A stretch of 64,000 nt of DNA from Vulcanimicrobiales bacterium (GCA_038231455.1 JBBRLI010000002.1:1-64000); one strand, 5' to 3'; numbered from the stretch's first letter, positions 2,736-24,540 are shown. The notes: generated by a model from the letters alone, not told the origin. Program-made: numbers and translations.

Positions 2736-4013
2736 GTGGCCGCGATCCCCGCCGAATCCGTTCGCCCGAAGCCCGCAAAGAAGTGGGCGTTGTGGCGTTA
2801 TCTGGCGGTTGCCGGTCCGGGCCTAATCGTCGCCTTCGCCGATACCGAAGCTGGCAGCGTGACAACGGCTGCCACTTCCGGCGCGCAATTCGGCATGAAG
2901 CTCGTGCTCTTACAGCTCTTACTGATCGTTCCGCTCTTCGTCGTACAAGAAATGACCGTCCGTCTGGGGACCGTCACGGGCAAAGGTCACGCGCAGCTCA
3001 TTCGAGACAACTACGGCCTGGGCTGGACGTGGGTATCGCTTGGCACCATGCTGGTGACGAATTTAGCGGCGCTCGTGACCGAGTTCATCGGGATCGCCGG
3101 CGTAGCGCTCATTTTTGGGCTGCCGGCGGCGCCCCTCGTTATCGGGGCAGCTGCGATTTTGATCGCGGTGAGTTTCTCCGGGAAATACAAGCGCGCTGAG
3201 TACATCGCAATGGCGCTCTGTTTTCTCGAGTTGCTCTTCATTCCGGCGGCGTTTGCCGCGCATCCGAGCGCGCACGATGTGGTGATGAACGGCCTCTTTG
3301 GTTCGCAGCCGCTCGGGAATACGACCTACTTGCTGTTGATCGCCGGCAACATTGGTGCCGTCATTATGCCTTGGATGATTTTCTATCAACAGTCGGCCGT
3401 GGTCGATAAGGGTCTCAAAGTAAAAGATCTGAATTTCGCGCGGGTCGATACGGCAATCGGCGCGGTCCTCACGCAAGTCATCATGATCGCAATCGTGGTG
3501 ACTACGGCGGCCACGCTGTTCGTCCATCATCAGAATGTCTCGGATGCCGCGCACGCGGCGCTCGCTCTCGTCCCGTTGACGGGCTCGAAACTCGCAGGAA
3601 TCGCCTTTGGTGCGGGTCTACTCGGTGCGTCGCTCATCGGTGCATTCGTGGTGTCGCTCGCGACGGCGTGGGCTTTTGGTGAAGCCTTTCGCTGGCCGTG
3701 CTCGCTCAATTTCCAGTGTACGCAAGCGAAGCGTTTTTACGGTTTGTATGCCGCAATCGTTGTTATTGCTGCCGGTGTCGTGCTCATTCCGAATCTGCCC
3801 CTGATCAAAATCACGCTTTATGTCGAAGCGTTCAACGCGTTCGTCTTACCGATTGTGCTTGGATTCTTGCTCATCATGGCCAACGACAAGAAAATCTTGG
3901 GCGACCGTGTGAATAGCGCGCTTGGCAATATCGTCACGATCGGTCTCTCCGTCGTCGTCGTCTCACTTGGCGTGTGGATGGCCTATATGACCTTCACCGG
4001 CCAGAACGGTTGA
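2736..4013 (+). CDS. Nramp-family divalent metal transporter (MntH-related)
   Basis: GPGLI..ADTEAG, QEMTVRLG.VTGKG, IGAVIMPWMIFYQQS; many TM helices; SD GAGGAG. Confidence 0.9.
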   Translation: MAAIPAESVRPKPAKKWALWRYLAVAGPGLIVAFADTEAGSVTTAATSGAQFGMKLVLLQLLLIVPLFVVQEMTVRLGTVTGKGHAQLIRDNYGLGWTWVSLGTMLVTNLAALVTEFIGIAGVALIFGLPAAPLVIGAAAILIAVSFSGKYKRAEYIAMALCFLELLFIPAAFAAHPSAHDVVMNGLFGSQPLGNTTYLLLIAGNIGAVIMPWMIFYQQSAVVDKGLKVKDLNFARVDTAIGAVLTQVIMIAIVVTTAATLFVHHQNVSDAAHAALALVPLTGSKLAGIAFGAGLLGASLIGAFVVSLATAWAFGEAFRWPCSLNFQCTQAKRFYGLYAAIVVIAAGVVLIPNLPLIKITLYVEAFNAFVLPIVLGFLLIMANDKKILGDRVNSALGNIVTIGLSVVVVSLGVWMAYMTFTGQNG

Positions 4014-4402
4014 TTCGCGCCGGCGCGCTTGCGTGCGCCATGATCGCCGTCGCGCTTCCCACTCAGGCTGCGACCGCGCCGTTCGAACGAACGTTTTCGG
4101 GGAGCGGCATGCGCGCGCGCGTTATCATCGTGCATCCGCTCATCGGGATATCGGTCTTACGGGTCGTCTTGCGCGACGATCGGGGTCGGCCGGTTCGCCG
4201 CGCGCGACTGAACGTCCATGTCGATATGGCGTCGATGGCGATGAACCCCCCGGGATCGGCACCCCTCGAGGAAATTCGCTCGGGCATCTACGAGCGCGTC
4301 GTAAAGCTCACGATGCCCGGCCACTGGAAAGCCGATCTAAGCATCGAGAGGCCCAGCGGCGTGACGTCGCTGAGCCTCCCGTTTTTCGTCGATCTGCCGT
4401 AG
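4010..4402 (+). CDS. YtkA/FixH-like exported protein (possible metal chaperone)
   Basis: Signal peptide; DMASMAM...E...GIYE...LTMPGHW pattern; TTGA overlap with the Nramp stop. Confidence 0.7.
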   Translation: MIRAGALACAMIAVALPTQAATAPFERTFSGSGMRARVIIVHPLIGISVLRVVLRDDRGRPVRRARLNVHVDMASMAMNPPGSAPLEEIRSGIYERVVKLTMPGHWKADLSIERPSGVTSLSLPFFVDLP

Positions 4403-6712
4403 CTATTTTCCGCTAAAGCGCACGCCGACTTCGACGCTGCGTGGCCGCGCATAATGGTTCCCTTGGGCATTGAGATACGTTACCCGGTAGCGGTCGTTCA
4501 ACAGATTGTGAACGGTCAGGGTCAACGCGCCGCCTTTTCCCGTCCCGAAGCCCTTCTGGAGATCGAACGTGGTATGCGGGGGTGATTTACAGTTATCGTT
4601 TGCCGGGTCGCAGCCGGCAGAAGTTAATCCCGAGCCGTATTCCCCGTTAACCGCAAGCCATCCGCCGCGTGTGTCGTTGAGGAGAATGCCGCCGTTGAAG
4701 TCGACACGCTGATCGTGATCGGCTGGGCTCCAATCGGTCGCCGGACCGCTAAAGCACGGTGCGAGGAGCTGCGTCTCACATTCTTTGACGACCGAGTATG
4801 TGTGCGTCGCCGATACATAGAAGCGGCCGCTGCGTGCGAGCGAGTGTTGGAAGAACGCGGTCTGCGTTCCGATACGACCAAGCTTATAGTTGATATCTTG
4901 GTGCAAATTTGTATTTAACACCGCCGTGTCGTCGATCACGTCAGTAGCGTTCTTCTGCATGATACGGATTCCGAGATCGCCGCCCGCGAGCGGAAGATGA
5001 CCGCCGATTTCATAAACGGAATCGCGCTGTGGGAGAAGGTCGAAATTTCCGCTCGCCGGATTGAGCGCCTGGCCCGTTGCCGGTGAGACGTTTTCAAACG
5101 AATACGGGGTGAAGAAGCGGCCATAATACGCATATAAACTCGCGCGCGGCCCAAGGAACCGCGTGAGCTTGACGCGTGGGCTGAGCATGAACGAGCCCGA
5201 GCGGAACTGCGTCGATGTGAGTTGGAACGCATCGGCACGGACGCCGTAATCCAGTTCGTAACCAGTGCCCATGCGCCAAGAATCTTGCAGGTACGCTTCT
5301 TCGGTGTGGCCGGTGTTCGGAGCGCGATCGCCAATCGTTGCGGGCGCAACGCCGAGCGGATTGTTCGATTGGAGTGTAACTGCGTAGTCTTTGCTTATCG
5401 TCGTCAGGTCGTAAAGCGTTCCGGCCTTGATCGCGTGACGGTCGCTGCGCAGTTCGTAGTCCACGTTGAAGCGATAATCGAGCGACGTACGATCGGCGCG
5501 AACGGCAAACGAACAGGTCGTTATGTCGGCCGAACAATTGGGCGTTCCGCCCGCGGCGATTCCGGCAGCGATATCGTTTGCGAAGTCCGGGGAATCTACG
5601 ATATGCGAGCGCTTGACGCTCGGTCCGAACGAGAGTGCACCGCGTTCTCCGATCGCATGGCGAAATTGTAGCGATCCGAAGAGGTCATCCTGACGTTCGT
5701 TGTCGTCTTGCTTCGAGGGTGCGCCGCTTTCGACGTCAGGTGGGATCTGATACGTTTGTAGCGAGTGCGTGAGCGTGAAATTCACAAAGTCCGTCGAACC
5801 GTGCGGAAGCGTCAGGCGAAGGAACTGGTTTGCGTTGCTGCCGCCGTTGTGCGGGGAGTTTTCGTTTGGCGGATCGAGTGCCCGGCCGTCGCGTTCGTTG
5901 CGTACCGCAAGGGAGATCGAGCCTGCACCGACGGGCGCGTGATAGCCAATCGTTCCGTCATACTTTGCATAGCTTCCGCCGAGCGCGTCAACCGTAAATC
6001 CCGGCGCGCCGCTTCCGCTACGCGTCGAGAGGTTGAGGACGGAGCCGAATTTCTCGCCGTATTGGGCGGGATACGCGCCTTCGAGCACTTCGGCGTATGC
6101 AAGGTTACTCGGATCGACTTCGCTGCCGATCACGCGATTGAGGGCCTGAGGTAAGGAGACGCCATCGACAACGTAGTTGATGTCGCCGTGATCGCCGTTG
6201 ATGTGCACGGTTCCGTTAGCACCGCGCGCGGCGCCGGGCAACTGGAGGAGGATCTCCGAGAAGTTGCCTGCTGCGGGCGAGCGCGAAAACGATTGGGCAT
6301 TGATCGTGACGTCGGTGCCGCCGCCGCGCACGATCGCACGCGATTGGGCGTTTGTGCGTCCGATCGTTTTGATTTCTTTCTGGACGTTAATCTCGAGATT
6401 TGCGCCAGCAGTATTGAGATCGACGCGGATGTCGTTATTTCCGAGGCTCGATGCGACAGCGATATCGTACGTTCCCACGGAGAGCGCGCTAAACGAGAAT
6501 TTGCCGCGCGCGTCCGTTTGCGTGCGCAAGGTGAGGTTGTTGCCGATCAAGCTGACGGATGCGGCGGGAACGGGTTGTCCATTGGAAACGACGGTGCCGG
6601 TGAGGAACGTCGTCGCGGCAAGCGCGGGCGTCGCCACCATGGCAATCAGGATGGCGAGCGTCGCCAGAAGTGCAGCACAGCGCCGCAACGGCTCGTGAAC
6701 GAGTGTAAACAC
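4403..6712 (-). CDS. TonB-dependent receptor with N-terminal carboxypeptidase-regulatory-like domain
   Basis: Signal peptide; GTV..GQPVPAASV...TDARGKFSF domain; plug (YVVDG, GAYPAQYG); barrel motifs (AYLQDSW, YGVRAD, SPRV, HNLLNDRY); SD AGGAG then GTG 6712 (TTG 6715 alternative). Confidence 0.92.
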   Translation of the reverse strand: MFTLVHEPLRRCAALLATLAILIAMVATPALAATTFLTGTVVSNGQPVPAASVSLIGNNLTLRTQTDARGKFSFSALSVGTYDIAVASSLGNNDIRVDLNTAGANLEINVQKEIKTIGRTNAQSRAIVRGGGTDVTINAQSFSRSPAAGNFSEILLQLPGAARGANGTVHINGDHGDINYVVDGVSLPQALNRVIGSEVDPSNLAYAEVLEGAYPAQYGEKFGSVLNLSTRSGSGAPGFTVDALGGSYAKYDGTIGYHAPVGAGSISLAVRNERDGRALDPPNENSPHNGGSNANQFLRLTLPHGSTDFVNFTLTHSLQTYQIPPDVESGAPSKQDDNERQDDLFGSLQFRHAIGERGALSFGPSVKRSHIVDSPDFANDIAAGIAAGGTPNCSADITTCSFAVRADRTSLDYRFNVDYELRSDRHAIKAGTLYDLTTISKDYAVTLQSNNPLGVAPATIGDRAPNTGHTEEAYLQDSWRMGTGYELDYGVRADAFQLTSTQFRSGSFMLSPRVKLTRFLGPRASLYAYYGRFFTPYSFENVSPATGQALNPASGNFDLLPQRDSVYEIGGHLPLAGGDLGIRIMQKNATDVIDDTAVLNTNLHQDINYKLGRIGTQTAFFQHSLARSGRFYVSATHTYSVVKECETQLLAPCFSGPATDWSPADHDQRVDFNGGILLNDTRGGWLAVNGEYGSGLTSAGCDPANDNCKSPPHTTFDLQKGFGTGKGGALTLTVHNLLNDRYRVTYLNAQGNHYARPRSVEVGVRFSGK

Positions 6713-6788
6713 CAAAAAACTCCTAGAAAATCGGGAGACCCGGCGCGCAGCGCGCGGGCGAAATTAGGCCGAAATCGGAGTGGTGTTC
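6707..6788 (-). promoter_or_regulatory. predicted SD/start-sequestering mRNA stem
   Basis: mRNA GAACACCA-CUCC (6788-6777) is complementary to GGAG...UGGUGUUU (6723-6707), which holds the SD and GUG; nested UCGG/CCGA pair and GC hairpin inside. Confidence 0.65.
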
Positions 6789-7363
6789 GGTGGCGGACGG
6801 TTGGGGACGAAAAGCGCGTAAATGCGGGCCCGCGGGAGATGCGGGATTGCAAAATAGCGACGTGCAACGCGGACCGCGCAGCGGGTCGAACGGTCGCGAT
6901 CGATATAGTGTGTGAGTGCCGAGGCGATTGCGACGAGCGGAGCTGCACCCGCGTCGAGAAGCAGCGCACCGAGGATTGCGGCCAAGACCGCAGACACGAG
7001 CGACCCAAGCGAGCCAAGCGGTGTGAGCGCCGTGCCCTCAAGCGTCAGCGTCAGAGCGGCAAAGCCGATTTGTAGTCCCACAGCCAGGGCCGCGAATTCG
7101 GGTCCGCGGCCGCGTCTTGGTAAGTCGGCGATGAGGAGCGTGAGGGTGCGCCTGCGGTCGTGCGTCGAGCCGCCTCGCGCGGCGAGCGCGATCAGAAGAA
7201 CGATCGATAAGGCGAGCAGACCCAGCAAATAGCTGTGCCGCGCGGCAAAATCGGCGGTCACGCCGACGCCGACGATTTCCCAAAACACGTGGACGGCCGC
7301 TCCAAGCGGCATCATGAGTGCAGCGAGGAGGCCGACGGCGCGCAAGCGACGAGTCGTCATCAT
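6764..7363 (-). CDS. multi-pass membrane leader protein with C-terminal RPPP arrest-like motif
   Basis: About 4 hydrophobic helices, AAVH..E and RHSY His motifs, basic tail ending VPNRPPPNTTPISA; about 50 nt upstream of the receptor. Confidence 0.8.
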   Translation of the reverse strand: MMTTRRLRAVGLLAALMMPLGAAVHVFWEIVGVGVTADFAARHSYLLGLLALSIVLLIALAARGGSTHDRRRTLTLLIADLPRRGRGPEFAALAVGLQIGFAALTLTLEGTALTPLGSLGSLVSAVLAAILGALLLDAGAAPLVAIASALTHYIDRDRSTRCAVRVARRYFAIPHLPRARIYALFVPNRPPPNTTPISA

Positions 7364-7407
7364 CGAGCTCTCAAACACGAAGCGGACGCGATTCTTTGCA
7401 CCAACGC

Positions 7408-7443
7408 AAAAAAAAAGCCCACCGCCGGACACGCGGTGGGCTT
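7408..7443 (-). terminator. intrinsic terminator
   Basis: AAGCCCACCGC/GCGGTGGGCTT stem followed by a 9-T run on the minus strand, after the lipoprotein gene. Confidence 0.9.
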
Positions 7444-7457
7444 GGAACGTGCCGCGG

Positions 7458-8438
7458 CTAGTGCGGTGTTGACGAGGGGTTTGCGCTCGGAGCCGGAGAG
7501 GGGCTCGCGCTCGGCGCGGCCGATTCGGAGGGTTCGACGCTGGGCGCTGCAGATGCGGTGGCACTTGGGGTTGCGCTCGGCGCGCTGCTGGGGCAAGGCG
7601 ATGCTGCGGTCCCGGTCGTGTTCGCCGTAATCGGCCCTTTGAGGTCGAGCGTCGGCTGACCGTTGGAACCAAAGATGCGGATGCGCAGACGGAACGTTCC
7701 ACTTGGAATCGGGATCGTCAGGGCTGAGGTGAGCGCCCCTTCGAATTTGAAACGGACGCCGGCGTCATCGTCGCCGTCTTGCGAGCGCAATTCAATTTTA
7801 ACGCGCGAGAGACTCGCGCCGTTCGGAGCGATCGTGAGCGATGTGCACGAAGCCGTCACCGTAACCGGCAGGTTCGACGGGAATGCATTTGTGGACGTGG
7901 TAACGGCGGTCGGATTGCCGTCTTTGTCTTCATCGATCGTCGAAGTTGCGGAGCCGGGCGAAGGTGACGCCGATGGTGATGCTCCGTTTCCGGCGTGTTC
8001 GGGTTGCGCGGAGACCCTCAAGGTTCCATCGGGTTTTACCATGACTGAGACGGCGGTTCCGTCGTCGGCGTCGGCGAGCACGACCGTTGCTTTTTGCGAA
8101 CCCGCGGTCACCACGACGGTCGCGCCGCGCGGCACATCGGCCGTGAATGTGATGGTCGCATGTCCGTTCGCATCGAGCGTCCCACTTGCAACGATTTTAT
8201 CGCGATACGTTACCGTGATTGGCGTACCGCTGAGTGCTTGCGTCTGCCGGCCGGCGCTAAGTGTGCTCGTTCCGGAAAAACCGATATCCATAACGCGCGT
8301 CGTTGTACGAAGCGCCGCCGCCGTTGCGAGGGAGGTCGGTACGCTAGCGTTCGGCACAGCGCTCGTTCCGCCGCCGCTGCAGCCGACAAACGCAATCGCG
8401 ACCGATGCGAGAAGACCGAAGCCGATCCGATAATTCAT
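7458..8438 (-). CDS. putative lipoprotein with Ser/Ala/Pro-rich tail
   Basis: Lipobox FVGC-SGGG; beta-rich body; SAxPS low-complexity C-terminus; SD GGGAG. Confidence 0.8.
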   Translation of the reverse strand: MNYRIGFGLLASVAIAFVGCSGGGTSAVPNASVPTSLATAAALRTTTRVMDIGFSGTSTLSAGRQTQALSGTPITVTYRDKIVASGTLDANGHATITFTADVPRGATVVVTAGSQKATVVLADADDGTAVSVMVKPDGTLRVSAQPEHAGNGASPSASPSPGSATSTIDEDKDGNPTAVTTSTNAFPSNLPVTVTASCTSLTIAPNGASLSRVKIELRSQDGDDDAGVRFKFEGALTSALTIPIPSGTFRLRIRIFGSNGQPTLDLKGPITANTTGTAASPCPSSAPSATPSATASAAPSVEPSESAAPSASPSPAPSANPSSTPH

Positions 8439-8479
8439 AGTTTCTCCCTAAGCTGGACTCCGTAGCGATGTTGCGGCTA

Positions 8480-8511
8480 ACACTACGAATCGATCGTGAA
8501 GAAACGATGAA
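8480..8511 (-). promoter_or_regulatory. possible OmpR/PhoB-type direct repeat plus -10 element
   Basis: Minus strand TTCAT-N6-TTCAC (11-bp period), 10 nt, then TAGTGT. Confidence 0.4.
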
Positions 8512-8615
8512 AAATTCCGCGTGGGCCGATCACTATGCGCTCGCTCACAACGATCGAGTCACGAAGCGTGCGTTCGGTTGACGCGGGTTTGCACGAAAAA
8601 CGTATTCGTCGTCGT

Positions 8616-10916
8616 TTACAAGGGAGCGATAATTCGAAACGTTAGCGATGTACCGGCGGCCCACTGCGAGGTATTGAATCCGTTATTGAACTTGAGTAGA
8701 TATTTGCGATTGGTAAGGTTGGTTATGTCGAGGCCCAGGCCGAGGCGATGCGCCGCGGGCTCGCGCCCAAGTGCGATATCAAACGTTACATGAGGGGGCA
8801 AGCGACCGCCGGTGCCATCGAGGAACTGGACGGGGTAGCCGGTGCCAAATTGCGGTTCGAGCGTCGCGTAGTAGCCCGACGATCCAAATCGCCGTGTGTA
8901 CGCGCCGTTGATCGAGAGCGTTTGATCGTGGTCTTCCGGCTGGAAGCCGCTCGCGTTGATCGCGGCCAGTTGGCTCGGTGGGATGATGAACGTGCCGCCC
9001 GAGATGCCGCTCGCCTCCGAGCTTGATAGGGTCGTCGAAAGGAAGAACGTGTCTCCGTTTACGCGACGACCGTCGAGCCGCGCTTCGACCCCTTCGTCTC
9101 GACCGAGCGTCGAATTATACACCGCGTATATCGGGGTGTTCGCGAGTTGCGTGGTATCGAGTACGTTTGCCACGTTCCGGCGGAAGTAATTTGCGTATCC
9201 GCGCAGGTTTGCACCGAACGTGTGCGCGATGCCCATCTCGTAGTACGAATCGCGTTGCGGTTGAAGATCGTAGACCGGTAAGACACCGGGGCTGTTCAAG
9301 ACGAGTGCGCTTGCATCGCGACGGGTATCTTCAAGCGCCGGCGCCGCGTAATTGCGGCCGTAGTAGAAGTGCACGACGTTGCGGCGGTCCGGCGCGAGGT
9401 TGATTTCGAACCGCGGGCTGATTTGATTGCCGCTGGTAAAGCCGGTCGAGCGGTCATAACGCACGCCCGCATTGAGAGTAAGGGCCGGCGAGGGCGACCA
9501 CTTATCTTGAATGTATGCACCGATCTGCGTCCCGTGTCGGCTTGCGTTGTCGAGAAGATCGGGGGGTGTTCCGTTCGTGATGCGGGAGTCAGAACGGAAG
9601 TTCTCACCCGAATAATCGAAGCCGATTTTGATAGCATGATGATCGCTTGCGCGGAAATTCGCCAGCCGCAGACCGGCGTAACTTGCGGATCGATCCTCGC
9701 GAAGTCCGGTAAGGTTTCCGGTCGGGGCGCCGGTCGCATCGACCGTTGTCGCAAGGACGTCTTGCGCCAGATCACCGGCGTAGACGATCCTGGAATTCCG
9801 AACCCACGGAATGATTTGAAAAAATCCTTGGCCGTCGGTCGCCGTGTGCGTCAATGCAAAGGAGGCCGTCCGATCGTACTCGCGCTGAACGTCATCTGTG
9901 CCCCGCGCACTGATGACCGGGTCGTTCGGACTAAACGTCGTGTTGGTCGGGATCTGAAATGCGGAAAAATTGTTCGAGTAGTTAAACGCAAGCGACGTGT
10001 TCTCGCCGATCGGTTTGAGGATACGCAGAAATTGATCGGCGAGATTCGAGCGATCGTGGTTGGGGACGAACGTCGGCGAATCGAGTCCGCGGCTTGAACG
10101 TGCGTCGCTTGCTCCGACGAACACCCGCGTTGCGCCGAGTGCGAACGATTGTGCAAGACGCATCTCGGCCTCGCCGTAGCTGCCAGCACCCAGCGTAAAT
10201 GTTCCGGACGCGCGCGCGCCAAGGTCGCTCGGACGTTTGGAGACGATATTGACGACTGCGCCCTGACGCGAGCCGCCGAACTCGGCGGGAAATGCTCCCG
10301 TGAAGACCTCGATCGAATCGACGTTGCGCGGATCGACGATCTCGGCAAAGTTGGAACTCGTCGACTGCGGCAGCGGGGCGCCGTCTAGTTCGTAGAGCAG
10401 GCCGTGGAAGCCATGCGCGACGGGTTCGTTATACGAGAATTTTACGACGCCCGGCGCGGTTTCAACGAGCGATGCGAGCGATTCGGGATTTGGCAACACG
10501 GCGATAAGCCCGGCTCCGATCGTATTTTGCGAGACCGGCGTTCCGCTCGCGCCGCGCGAGGTTGCGCTCACGCGGCCGATGACGCGTGCGTCGCTCGTGA
10601 CCGAGAGGGCCACATTGGCGACATCCCCGCTTCCAACGGAGATTTCCAGGGGCGGTGCCGTGCGTCCGTCCGGGATTTTTGCCGCAATGTGATAATCTCC
10701 AAACGGCACGCGGGCGAACGCAAAGCGGCCGTCGCCTTGCGAATCGGTCCCGAGGATGAGCGATCCCCCCGCAAGGGTGACATGTGCGGCGACAGGCCGA
10801 CCATCGAGCGTGACGGTGCCACGAACGAAGCCTACGGTATCAGCGAAGGCCGGCGACATGGTTCCAAGGGCAATGAGTACCGCGCAGGCTAGCTGCGCGA
10901 CAAAACGACGAGACAA
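8616..10916 (-). CDS. TonB-dependent receptor with N-terminal carboxypeptidase-regulatory-like domain
   Basis: Signal peptide; plug (YELDG, TGAFPAEFG, GAVVNIVSK); AYIQDKW, GVRYD, SPRF, NLTNRKY; SD GGAGGA then TTG 10916 (TTG 10928 alternative). Confidence 0.92.
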   Translation of the reverse strand: MSRRFVAQLACAVLIALGTMSPAFADTVGFVRGTVTLDGRPVAAHVTLAGGSLILGTDSQGDGRFAFARVPFGDYHIAAKIPDGRTAPPLEISVGSGDVANVALSVTSDARVIGRVSATSRGASGTPVSQNTIGAGLIAVLPNPESLASLVETAPGVVKFSYNEPVAHGFHGLLYELDGAPLPQSTSSNFAEIVDPRNVDSIEVFTGAFPAEFGGSRQGAVVNIVSKRPSDLGARASGTFTLGAGSYGEAEMRLAQSFALGATRVFVGASDARSSRGLDSPTFVPNHDRSNLADQFLRILKPIGENTSLAFNYSNNFSAFQIPTNTTFSPNDPVISARGTDDVQREYDRTASFALTHTATDGQGFFQIIPWVRNSRIVYAGDLAQDVLATTVDATGAPTGNLTGLREDRSASYAGLRLANFRASDHHAIKIGFDYSGENFRSDSRITNGTPPDLLDNASRHGTQIGAYIQDKWSPSPALTLNAGVRYDRSTGFTSGNQISPRFEINLAPDRRNVVHFYYGRNYAAPALEDTRRDASALVLNSPGVLPVYDLQPQRDSYYEMGIAHTFGANLRGYANYFRRNVANVLDTTQLANTPIYAVYNSTLGRDEGVEARLDGRRVNGDTFFLSTTLSSSEASGISGGTFIIPPSQLAAINASGFQPEDHDQTLSINGAYTRRFGSSGYYATLEPQFGTGYPVQFLDGTGGRLPPHVTFDIALGREPAAHRLGLGLDITNLTNRKYLLKFNNGFNTSQWAAGTSLTFRIIAPL

Positions 10917-10920
10917 ACGA

Positions 10921-10989
10921 TCCTCCAAAATAAAAGCGCAATCGAATCGGCAGTCAAAACTGCCGAGGAACGGTCAGCGCAGCGGAGGA
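10921..10989 (-). promoter_or_regulatory. predicted SD-sequestering structure
   Basis: UCCUCC within the Ala-Pro-Pro codons (10989-10984) is complementary to SD GGAGGA (10926-10921); perfect 8-bp hairpin TCGGCAGT/ACTGCCGA (10947-10966) lies between them. Confidence 0.6.
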
Positions 10990-11567
10990 GCGCGCCCAAG
11001 GCGCGATCCACGGCCGAGACGGCCCGTGTGGAGCGGACGGCGTGCCGCGATGGGAGCAATCTCAACAACTGGTCCGGAGGCCGACAGCAGAACGGCCAGG
11101 AGTCGGACAAAGGCCACGCCGAGGTCGGACATGGCTAGCGTGAGAGCACGGATGGCCAGCGCAAGCACGAGCGAGACGACAAGCATCAGCGCGACGGGAA
11201 GGACGAAATCGGCGAAAAGACCTTGGACCGGGCAACAGCTCTCGAGTCGCTCGACCCCAAAGTACACAGCGACCCCGCTCGTGGCGATCGCAGCGGTGGT
11301 CGCGCCGATCGAGCCGCGTCCAGGAAGTACGTCCAGCAAGCGCCGCGCCACGATCGACCCGGACGCACATGTCCGCGCCTCGCGGGCGATCAGCCACACG
11401 GCCCCGACCGCAAGCCCGATGAGCGCGACCACGGCAAAGCTGACCAGGGCCTCATTGCCCTCGCCGCCCATCGCGTGATCGTCTCCAAACCGGACCTGGT
11501 GTGCCAAAAGCGCGCTCAGGACGGCGAGGGGAACGACCGCAACCCCTCTGCGGATGCCCATGGTCAT
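10974..11567 (-). CDS. multi-pass membrane leader protein with C-terminal RAPP arrest-like motif
   Basis: About 4 TM helices, LLAH...DDH motif, ESCC, basic tail ending GRAPPLR*; directly upstream of the receptor. Confidence 0.8.
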   Translation of the reverse strand: MTMGIRRGVAVVPLAVLSALLAHQVRFGDDHAMGGEGNEALVSFAVVALIGLAVGAVWLIAREARTCASGSIVARRLLDVLPGRGSIGATTAAIATSGVAVYFGVERLESCCPVQGLFADFVLPVALMLVVSLVLALAIRALTLAMSDLGVAFVRLLAVLLSASGPVVEIAPIAARRPLHTGRLGRGSRLGRAPPLR

Positions 11568-24464: not shown

Positions 24465-24540
24465 TCCCGAGTAGCTCAGCTGGTAGAGCAATTGACTGTT
24501 AATCAATGGGTCCTTGGTTCGAGTCCAAGCTCGGGAGCCA
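24465..24540 (+). tRNA. tRNA-Asn (GTT)
   Basis: TCCCGAG/CTCGGGA acceptor stem, TAGCTCAGCTGGTAGAGC D-arm, ATTGA-CTGTTAA-TCAAT anticodon arm, GGTTCGAGTCC T-arm, CCA end. Confidence 0.97.

Follow-up and report, generated by a model that had tools for sequence, protein, structure and literature searches.

The 64,000-nucleotide (nt) stretch of DNA from a Vulcanimicrobiales bacterium analyzed here (GCA_038231455.1, JBBRLI010000002.1:1-64000; hereafter the window) carries, between positions 4403 and 11567, two minus-strand transcription units that each comprise a small membrane leader protein and a TonB-dependent receptor (TBDR), with an intrinsic terminator in between. Both leaders end in an Arg-x-Pro-Pro (RxPP) motif, and the mRNA in or just after this motif can pair with the Shine-Dalgarno (SD) sequence of the receptor gene. 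We propose that each unit is a sensor-leader and receptor cassette, in which the leader would act as a co-translational metal sensor and a ribosome arrested at RxPP would unmask the receptor SD, and we put the probability of this reading at about 70%.

Leader 2 (10974..11567, on the minus strand like all features of the two units) is a 197-amino-acid (aa) four-helix membrane protein with the C-terminus RLGRAPPLR, in which RAPP lies 2 aa before the stop, and leader 1 (6764..7360) is a 198-aa four-helix membrane protein with the C-terminus FVPNRPPPNTTPISA, in which RPPP lies 7 aa before the stop. The motif is encoded by CGC GCU CCU CCG in leader 2 (Arg-Ala-Pro-Pro, 10983..10994) and by CGU CCG CCA CCG in leader 1 (Arg-Pro-Pro-Pro, 6788..6799). 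The proteins encoded downstream exceed the Pfam cut-offs for both Plug and TonB_dep_Rec_b-barrel, which identifies them as TonB-dependent receptors: TBDR2 (8616..10916; the listed open reading frame, ORF, starts at 10928 and has 770 aa) matches TonB_dep_Rec_b-barrel at 4.8e-18, Plug at 2.1e-6 and CarboxypepD_reg at 1.2e-5, and TBDR1 (4403..6712 or 6715, 770 aa) matches the barrel at 8.6e-13, CarboxypepD_reg at 6.6e-11 and Plug at 1.4e-6. The TTG at 10914-10916 lies 4 nt past the TBDR2 SD sequence GGAGGA (10921..10926), while the listed TTG at 10928 overlaps its own SD; moreover, the N-terminus read from TTG 10916, MSRRF..., matches the orthologue N-termini MSRF.... TTG 10916 is therefore the likelier start, the spacer between leader 2 and TBDR2 is thus 57 nt, and automatic annotation would probably mis-start this receptor. 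The initiation region of TBDR1 (6710..6724) contains the SD AGGAG (6720-6724) and the start GTG 6710-6712 or TTG 6713-6715, giving a spacer of 48-51 nt. The arrangement confirms an earlier note on this DNA, which had described two leaders of about 198 aa with four helices and a terminal RAPP or RPPP ahead of receptors of about 770 aa.

No similarity between leader 1 and leader 2 was observed with BLASTP (best E 0.82), a search of their own genome with either leader did not recover the other, and comparison of shallow profiles by hhalign gave 0.6%. With deep profiles built from 27 leader-1 and 133 leader-2 relatives, hhalign gave 96.1% (E 3.5e-9, 140 columns) and aligned the His at the end of transmembrane (TM) helix 1, the second His, the LP motif, the (L)E(G) motif and the RxPP of both leaders, so that the shared architecture listed in the earlier note holds at the level of profiles. 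In addition, 5 of 25 leader-1-type ORFs match the leader-2 hidden Markov model at 1e-4 to 7e-10. Judged by these profiles, the two leaders are diverged paralogues of one superfamily. Neither leader belongs to a Pfam or NCBIfam family; Pfam at E ≤ 0.1 gave only weak AzlD and DUF3382 noise, and no match to DUF2946 (PF11162) was found in Pfam.

A leader-2 profile search covering 1.84 billion proteins (E ≤ 0.001, each match representing one 50%-identity cluster) placed at least 192 clusters in this family. Among the matches listed (150 of 192), 140 carry R[AP]PP at most 25 aa from the C-terminus (93 RPPP and 47 RAPP); 8 are without the motif and are apparently fragments or truncated, and 2 have RAPP 59-65 residues from the end. 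In an alignment of 133 full-length representatives that are 19-47% identical to leader 2, the sole invariant residues are His31, Glu109, Arg192, Pro194 and Pro195, while His23, Gly28, Gly34, Gly35, Pro82 and Glu106 are conserved in at least 90%. No Cys, and hence no CxxC or CxxxC, occurs among the invariant or ≥70% conserved columns of these sequences. The earlier note's view of a distinct, His-bearing multi-pass leader class lacking CxxC is supported. The leader-1 set is smaller, its 27 sequences coming from 25 of the 121 genomes in that bacterial family to which the leader-2 genomes also belong, and RPPP is invariant in 27/27 aligned relatives.

The same picture was obtained at the level of loci, for which 90 leader-2-type loci (30 out of the genome sampling given below and 60 further ones) and 25 leader-1-type loci (115 together) were compared. 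R[AP]PP plus 1-10 residues forms the C-terminus in 90/90 leader-2-type loci, and [N/Y/S/C]RPPP is kept in 24/25 leader-1-type loci. The exception, L113 (G207:C147), is a leader-1-type ORF with an X and no in-frame motif; its DNA reads CGC TAT CGT CCT CCG CCG (R-Y-R-P-P-P) in another frame, which suggests an assembly error or a frameshift. Glu109 and Arg192 lie 75.0 ± 1.6 residues apart in the leader-2 family (range 72-83), even with a poorly conserved tail between them. The residues immediately before the motif favour R-R-F-[A/G], and the tail past the motif is mostly 3 or 6 residues long. Features that characterize RAPP-like arrest peptides were accordingly found in the leaders: an RxPP core, with x being Ala or Gly or, less well, Ser or Pro, a few residues from the C-terminus (133/133 representatives, 90/90 loci), an N-terminal localization signal in the form of four hydrophobic helices, and a downstream initiation region that can be masked, for which support is modest in the leader-1 subfamily.

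The genome-by-genome sampling of the leader-2 family covered one phylum, in which 79 of 201 genomes (the unpublished G177 included) contain it. Within this phylum it is confined to a single bacterial family (78/113 genomes, compared with 0/87 across 20 other families). Named sources of leader-2 relatives are Candidatus Velthaea, Vulcanimicrobiota and Candidatus Baltobacteraceae, a query with a 13-sequence leader-2 alignment gave 3 loci only, all from Vulcanimicrobiota or Ca. Velthaea, and tblastn against plasmids gave no match. Language-model look-alikes in the protein Atlas were Vulcanimicrobiota clusters for leader 1 and, as a lead only, clusters of 201-220-aa hypothetical proteins, mostly from Actinomycetota, for leader 2; the nearest named family of both leaders there is DUF6412, with a weak score of 0.76-0.81.

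An AlphaFold2 (AF2) model of leader 2, calculated with the family alignment, reached a predicted local distance difference test score of 88.9 and a predicted template modelling score of 0.78. Its four long helices span 5-27, 35-64, 87-108 and 117-162; there are also two short helices on the cytoplasmic side, and residues 163-197 form a coil tail. TM segments were judged by hydropathy and this model. The distribution of Lys and Arg places both termini and the loop 61-85 in the cytoplasm and His23/His31 and Glu106/Glu109 at the periplasmic face. The end of TM4 lies about 53 residues before the RxPP motif. Foldseek of the leader-2 model against the PDB gave no match at E ≤ 0.001. FtsX/MacB/BceB-type four-helix domains, obtained in a VIA-align wide search with Z 6-7.2, lie within the helical-bundle background, and no fold was assigned from them.

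In the window, UCCUCCG of leader 2 (10983-10989, in the Ala-Pro-Pro codons) acts as the anti-SD and pairs with UGGAGGA in both the minimum free energy (MFE) and the centroid structure, and the bases right before the Arg codon pair with the start region of TBDR2. The junction folds with z = -2.75, and 3/200 shuffles fold as well. Duplex energies were compared between the 21 nt from the Arg codon and the 18-nt SD region, with about 150 other windows of the same leader ORF as controls; for leader 2 (locus L003) the motif–SD duplex is -11.3 kcal/mol against a control mean of -5.7 (rank 0.027). In unit 1, by the MFE as well as the centroid structure, the segment GAACACCACUCCGA (6775..6788), in the codons just past RPPP, pairs with AGGAGU plus the GUG start of TBDR1 around a nested GC-rich inner hairpin (6738..6759) that has a counterpart in the same-genus relative L097. 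This junction folds with z = -1.94 (6/200 shuffles fold as well), and in L097 both sides of the helix are changed, GCUCC/GGAGC replacing ACUCC/GGAGU of leader 1. The single-sequence folding values in the window are moderate only, and the strong evidence for the complementarity between motif region and receptor SD, which the earlier note had described, comes from the relatives.

For the majority of leader-2 relatives, the motif sequence is CGU CCU CCU CCG AUC G, and the spacer ends in CGAUCGGAGGA directly before the start codon, a near-perfect complement. In 86 loci (4 further loci with the start more than 90 nt away were left out), the motif–SD duplex has a mean of -16.6 kcal/mol, compared with -8.0 for the other ORF windows; the motif window is the best of all in 60/86 loci and ranks at or below 0.05 in 74/86, and the SD pairs with it in the MFE fold of 76-77 of 86 loci. 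CCU accounts for 145/266 (55%) of the Pro codons within the motif, compared with 229/3247 (7%) of those elsewhere in the leaders and in the receptor genes. A locus's own anti-SD and SD pair better than those of different loci (-16.7 versus -14.3), and 0/5000 permutations reach the own-pair value. For a named 11-pair helix in 85 distinct junctions, 81.6% of cells are paired, compared with 38-54% upon sliding by 1-3 columns, although the helix was chosen from these same sequences, which biases the paired percentage upward. Changes on both sides are seen in 7/11 helix pairs (23 cells), one pair being AU in 47, GC in 9, GU in 3 and UA in 2 cases, and the values of the named helix were reached by at most 1/500 shuffles. 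Variant loci keep pairing otherwise, with GUC/GAC, CCCCC/GGGGG or CCUACGAUCG/CGAUCGUAGG. In the leader-1 family, the SD pairs with the leader tail in 16/21 loci.

In many leader-2-type relatives (L006-L032 and others, e.g., L007:2017-2101 and L012:2017-2111), the leader stop codon lies in or beside the loop of a small GC hairpin, GCGCG-UAA-N-CGCGC, which the anti-SD:SD helix encloses; because of this position, (R/C)A recurs at the C-termini of these relatives. In a subgroup (L012, L015, L019, L020, L026, L028, L040), the hairpin is extended and followed by a U run, and thus resembles a terminator.

Arrest at RAPP, in which the third codon of the motif occupies the P site and the fourth the A site, has been demonstrated for ApdA, ApdP, CruR and seven S. 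lividans proteins (PMC12992588). As described in the same survey, replacement of Ala by Pro, which gives RPPP, leaves arrest partial in ApdA and nearly complete in ApdP in B. subtilis, and random screens yielded RxPP with x = G, A, S or P (PMC12992588), while RPPP is termed a 'strong pauser' in E. coli (PMC8129111). By analogy with these data, RPPP is arrest-competent.

Our proposed mechanism combines these elements. The leader would fold in the inner membrane as a four-helix protein whose N- and C-terminus both face the cytoplasm. Helices 1 and 3 would carry two His and two Glu at their periplasmic ends, and an Arg-rich, poorly conserved cytoplasmic tail would finish with R-[A/P]-P-P a few codons short of the stop. 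In the free mRNA, the motif codons would mask the receptor SD and, in the window, the start codon as well. From the published RAPP and RxPP biochemistry, a ribosome is expected to arrest at RxPP. At this point all four helices would have left the exit tunnel, and with about 53 residues between the end of TM4 and the P site, the bundle could be inserted and folded. The arrested ribosome would entirely cover the motif codons, which form the anti-SD strand, and would leave the SD, 35-60 nt downstream, free, so that the receptor could be translated; once the arrest is released, termination 2-10 codons further on would let the helix re-form and shut the receptor off. Most likely, occupancy of the periplasmic His/Glu site would set the duration of the arrest and hence receptor translation. 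The analysis shows the family with its invariant motif and fixed spacing, the gene context, the RNA helix with its codon bias and covariation, and the fold, whereas arrest, ligand and the sign of the response are inferred; the direction of the response is not readable from the sequence. CruR is relieved by copper and stalling of CutF is enhanced by it, and here the same leader family precedes both likely uptake receptors and likely detoxification genes.

Alternatively, the leaders could be ordinary membrane proteins, e.g., a metal-handling partner of the receptor, with RxPP as a motif at the protein level and the helix serving plain translational coupling without programmed arrest. The confident and stable AF2 fold, the conservation of His and Glu inside the membrane domain, and a length of 180-200 aa, which is large for a leader, would fit such proteins, and any terminating ribosome would melt the helix too, as the stop lies 1-10 codons past the helix strand. 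However, plain coupling needs neither an Arg-x-Pro-Pro that is invariant in 133/133 representatives nor a constant distance of 75 residues to the sensor Glu. Apart from the motif itself, this part of the tail is not conserved and is predicted to be coil, and RxPP is described as depleted from proteomes and as arresting translation wherever tested (PMC12992588). We therefore regard coupling without arrest as unlikely, although the coupling and arrest readings are not exclusive of each other.

A further explanation is that arrest acts mainly on transcription, with the stalled ribosome blocking Rho or an attenuator and SD masking being secondary. CruR, the only characterized RAPP leader before a TonB-dependent transporter, works via Rho (PMC9426467), and a GC hairpin with a U run past the leader stop is present in some relatives, e.g., L012 and L097. 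On the other hand, the intergenic regions are 27-68 nt long in most loci compared with 162 bp in CruR, the two junctions of the window hold no terminator-like site above chance, and the conserved, covarying element is the SD helix itself. A mainly transcriptional output is accordingly quite improbable, and we favor translational unmasking of the receptor SD.

The genes downstream of the leaders point to the nature of the signal. A TBDR2-like receptor follows directly on the same strand in 75/90 leader-2-type loci, L038 and L047 with shortened frames among them, and a TBDR1-like receptor follows in 24/25 leader-1-type loci, while L120 reaches the contig end. The remaining 15/90 leaders precede genes for a CopC-CopD fusion, a multicopper oxidase, a redoxin or a secreted protein. 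The fusion of CopC, CopD and signal peptidase I was identified by scanning in L054 and L057 and by near-identical N-termini and lengths in L078, L086 and L090, the multicopper oxidase follows the leader in L058, a ResA/TlpA-like thiol-disulfide oxidoreductase was scanned in L011 and L013 and assigned by similarity in L014, and a secreted protein of about 304 aa was scanned in L031, L043 and L049 and assigned by similarity in L065, L079 and L082. No conserved partner across loci was found among the genes beyond the receptor. Homologues of CruR are described upstream of genes for TonB-dependent transporters (TBDT), CopC, AhpC_TSA proteins and cuproenzyme assembly (PMC9426467). Because this repertoire is the same as the one found here, copper is probably the ligand of the leaders. 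The earlier note had left open whether the leaders sense a metal or membrane-insertion force; the metal is favored because paralogous leaders precede copper genes. That the leaders monitor membrane insertion (Sec or YidC capacity) by pulling force, like MifM, ApcA and CliM, is very improbable: four TM helices precede RxPP, the last of them would be outside the tunnel at arrest, and RAPP peptides of the insertion-monitoring type are already known, but the identified downstream genes in the 115 loci are receptors or copper/redox proteins and never sec or yidC, and invariance falls on His and Glu of the periplasmic side, as is typical of a ligand site.

Two of these downstream genes are noteworthy in themselves. 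In L054 (2424-4448, minus strand) and L057 (1592-3628, plus strand), a single ORF of about 675 aa fuses CopC, CopD and signal peptidase I (S26), which is an unusual combination. The secreted protein of about 304 aa (L031:526-1437, minus strand; L043:3490-4443, minus strand; L049:1597-2508, plus strand) has the mature N-terminus HVVCG(D/N)RVFPTTLT and no sequence match in Pfam, NCBIfam or the PDB; it may be an uncharacterized copper-related protein.

Several observations weigh against a metal-tuned arrest that unmasks the receptor SD. Polyproline stalls such as RPPP are normally relieved by elongation factor P (EF-P), and RPPP may therefore arrest less strongly than RAPP. The mature form of a four-helix protein that co-evolves and folds confidently may have a function too. 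RNAalifold predicted no pairs in the 85 junctions, the alignment of which is gappy in the centre, and we attribute the negative result to these gaps. In the leader-1 family the duplex statistic is weak (motif window best in 4/23 loci, mean -11.6 versus -9.9), and leader-1 relatives with shuffled tails still pair 48% of SD bases, compared with 70% observed. With Pro-Pro codons rich in C and the SD rich in G, much of the complementarity between anti-SD and SD arises by necessity. All relatives come from one bacterial family and share ancestry, so that the counts are not independent. The bias towards CCU could partly serve slow decoding instead of pairing (PMC8129111). Copper is pointed to by the neighbourhoods of paralogues alone, and the receptors match no copper-specific model but only generic NCBIfam subfamilies, far below the cut-offs. 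A PDB sequence search was uninformative in this respect: TBDR2 matched nothing, and the matches of TBDR1 were limited to YncD and PqqU at about 2e-4.

A wider reading can be offered tentatively, at somewhat less than even odds. The leaders would form a lineage-wide superfamily of folded four-helix proteins that act chiefly as nascent chains, in which a periplasmic two-His/two-Glu metal site about 75 residues from the peptidyl-transferase centre tunes a polyproline-type arrest and about 12 nucleotides encode both the arrest peptide and the anti-SD. Controlling, within the same genomes, uptake receptors, CopCD, a multicopper oxidase and TlpA-like redoxins, this one sensor design would be the main copper regulator of Baltobacteraceae in place of a transcription factor. 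As RPPP is found in two-thirds of the members, the arrest may be EF-P-sensitive.

The two units are separated by a terminator graded as strong (7415..7443, minus strand; an 11-bp stem with 8 GC pairs, then a T run). Upstream of it, the final gene of unit 2 (7458..8438, minus strand) encodes a putative Ser/Ala/Pro-rich lipoprotein of 326 aa, for which Big_6 and CopC matches in Pfam are sub-threshold only and the NCBIfam scan gave no family. Adjoining the cassette is a second metal-related pair on the plus strand, an Nramp transporter gene (2736-4013) that overlaps a 142-aa YtkA-like/FixH-like ORF (3974-4402) by 40 nt; the latter ends at 4402, exactly where the convergent TBDR1 gene ends (4403). 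A scan of the genome gave no further R[AGP]PP-ended membrane ORF with a downstream gene, with a length filter that also dropped the long open frame of leader 1. No Rfam family was found in the leader–receptor region, and a tRNA gene (24465-24537, plus strand) is the sole Rfam match in the window at the gathering threshold.

The earlier note had stated that no description of such a system was known, which is too strong. The principle is already published for CruR, CutF and the four-TM RAPP peptides of Streptomyces, and the survey of Fujiwara et al. (2025) describes RAPP/RGPP-containing membrane or secreted ORFs of fewer than 300 aa as enriched before TonB-dependent receptors and copper genes across phyla (PMC12992588). 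No description of the present leader family was found in the literature searched; the supplements of the surveys (PMC12992588, PMC9973294) may list members of the RAPP type. What is new is a large unnamed family with a folded four-helix His/Glu sensor, outside DUF2946 and without Cys, and that this family is present in Vulcanimicrobiota (Baltobacteraceae). Likewise new is the natural predominance of the RPPP core, which goes beyond the extraction of Fujiwara et al. (2025), in the text of which 'RPPP' occurs 0 times (PMC12992588). A further new point is that the codons of the proposed arrest motif also form the anti-SD strand, backed by covariation and by a strong signature in synonymous codons.

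With these findings, metal sensing by nascent-chain arrest, as in CruR and CutF, would reach an uncultured phylum and a sensor domain without detectable similarity to those of these two proteins. Since RPPP and RAPP alternate at the same position, the family offers a natural comparison of polyproline and RAPP arrest, including EF-P dependence, and the design would be economical, with the arrest codons themselves being the RNA switch. The family can be annotated by the motif set H..FG..H..GG / LP / E..E / R[AP]PP, which would mark its receptors as probably copper-regulated.

Among known systems, SecM, MifM, ApdA and ApdP resemble the proposed mechanism in that arrest near the C-terminus of a localized nascent chain opens an SD-masking structure, and in a RAPP or RAGP core whose third and fourth codons occupy the P and the A site, respectively (PMC12992588). 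They differ in that they monitor Sec or YidC, regulate those genes, and sense through a signal peptide or one TM segment instead of a ligand-site domain. Closer in topology are SLIV_18480, SLIV_27375, SLIV_33595 as well as SLIV_33605 of S. lividans, which have four predicted TM segments, RAPP or RGPP near the C-terminus and a next gene on the same strand (PMC12992588). SLIV_18480 additionally has conserved His (plus Met) residues predicted to bind copper and a metal-related downstream gene, and Arg-dependent arrest of these four-TM peptides has been described in vitro and in B. subtilis (PMC12992588). The comparison with our leaders is by description only; the S. lividans proteins come from an actinomycete and are reported upstream of YcnI-like, thioredoxin or ECF sigma genes and not of receptors (PMC12992588).

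CutF of Rhodobacter capsulatus, a DUF2946-like protein encoded upstream of the multicopper oxidase gene cutO, shares with the proposed mechanism a nascent chain that senses periplasmic copper, a Pro-rich C-terminus resembling a stalling motif, and an mRNA stem-loop that shields the SD of the next gene and unfolds during the pause (PMC9973294). The paralogue at L058 likewise precedes a multicopper oxidase gene. No homology between CutF and the present leaders was detected; CutF is a secreted, rapidly degraded protein with a Sec signal and CxxxC, the Pro-rich motif of which alone gave no arrest in E. coli (PMC9973294).

The nearest parallel in gene order is CruR (Bp2923, DUF2946) of Bordetella pertussis, which is copper-responsive and encoded upstream of the TonB-dependent transporter gene bfrG. 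Like the leaders, CruR is encoded by the first gene of its operon, has a C-terminal RAPP, in its case required for regulation, and has a TonB-dependent transporter gene downstream; homologues of CruR lie ahead of TBDT, CopC, AhpC_TSA-type redoxin and cuproenzyme genes as here, and they keep a conserved spacing between sensor motif and RAPP that recalls the 75-residue spacing from Glu109 in our family (PMC9426467). Arrest of CruR has been demonstrated in vitro (PMC12992588). In contrast, CruR is a protein of about 140 aa with a signal peptide and CXXC sensing that is predicted to be poorly structured, and its output is Rho-dependent termination over a 162-bp spacer (PMC9426467), whereas the leaders described here are folded four-helix His/Glu proteins with a 45-57-nt spacer, an SD-masking helix and, mostly, RPPP.

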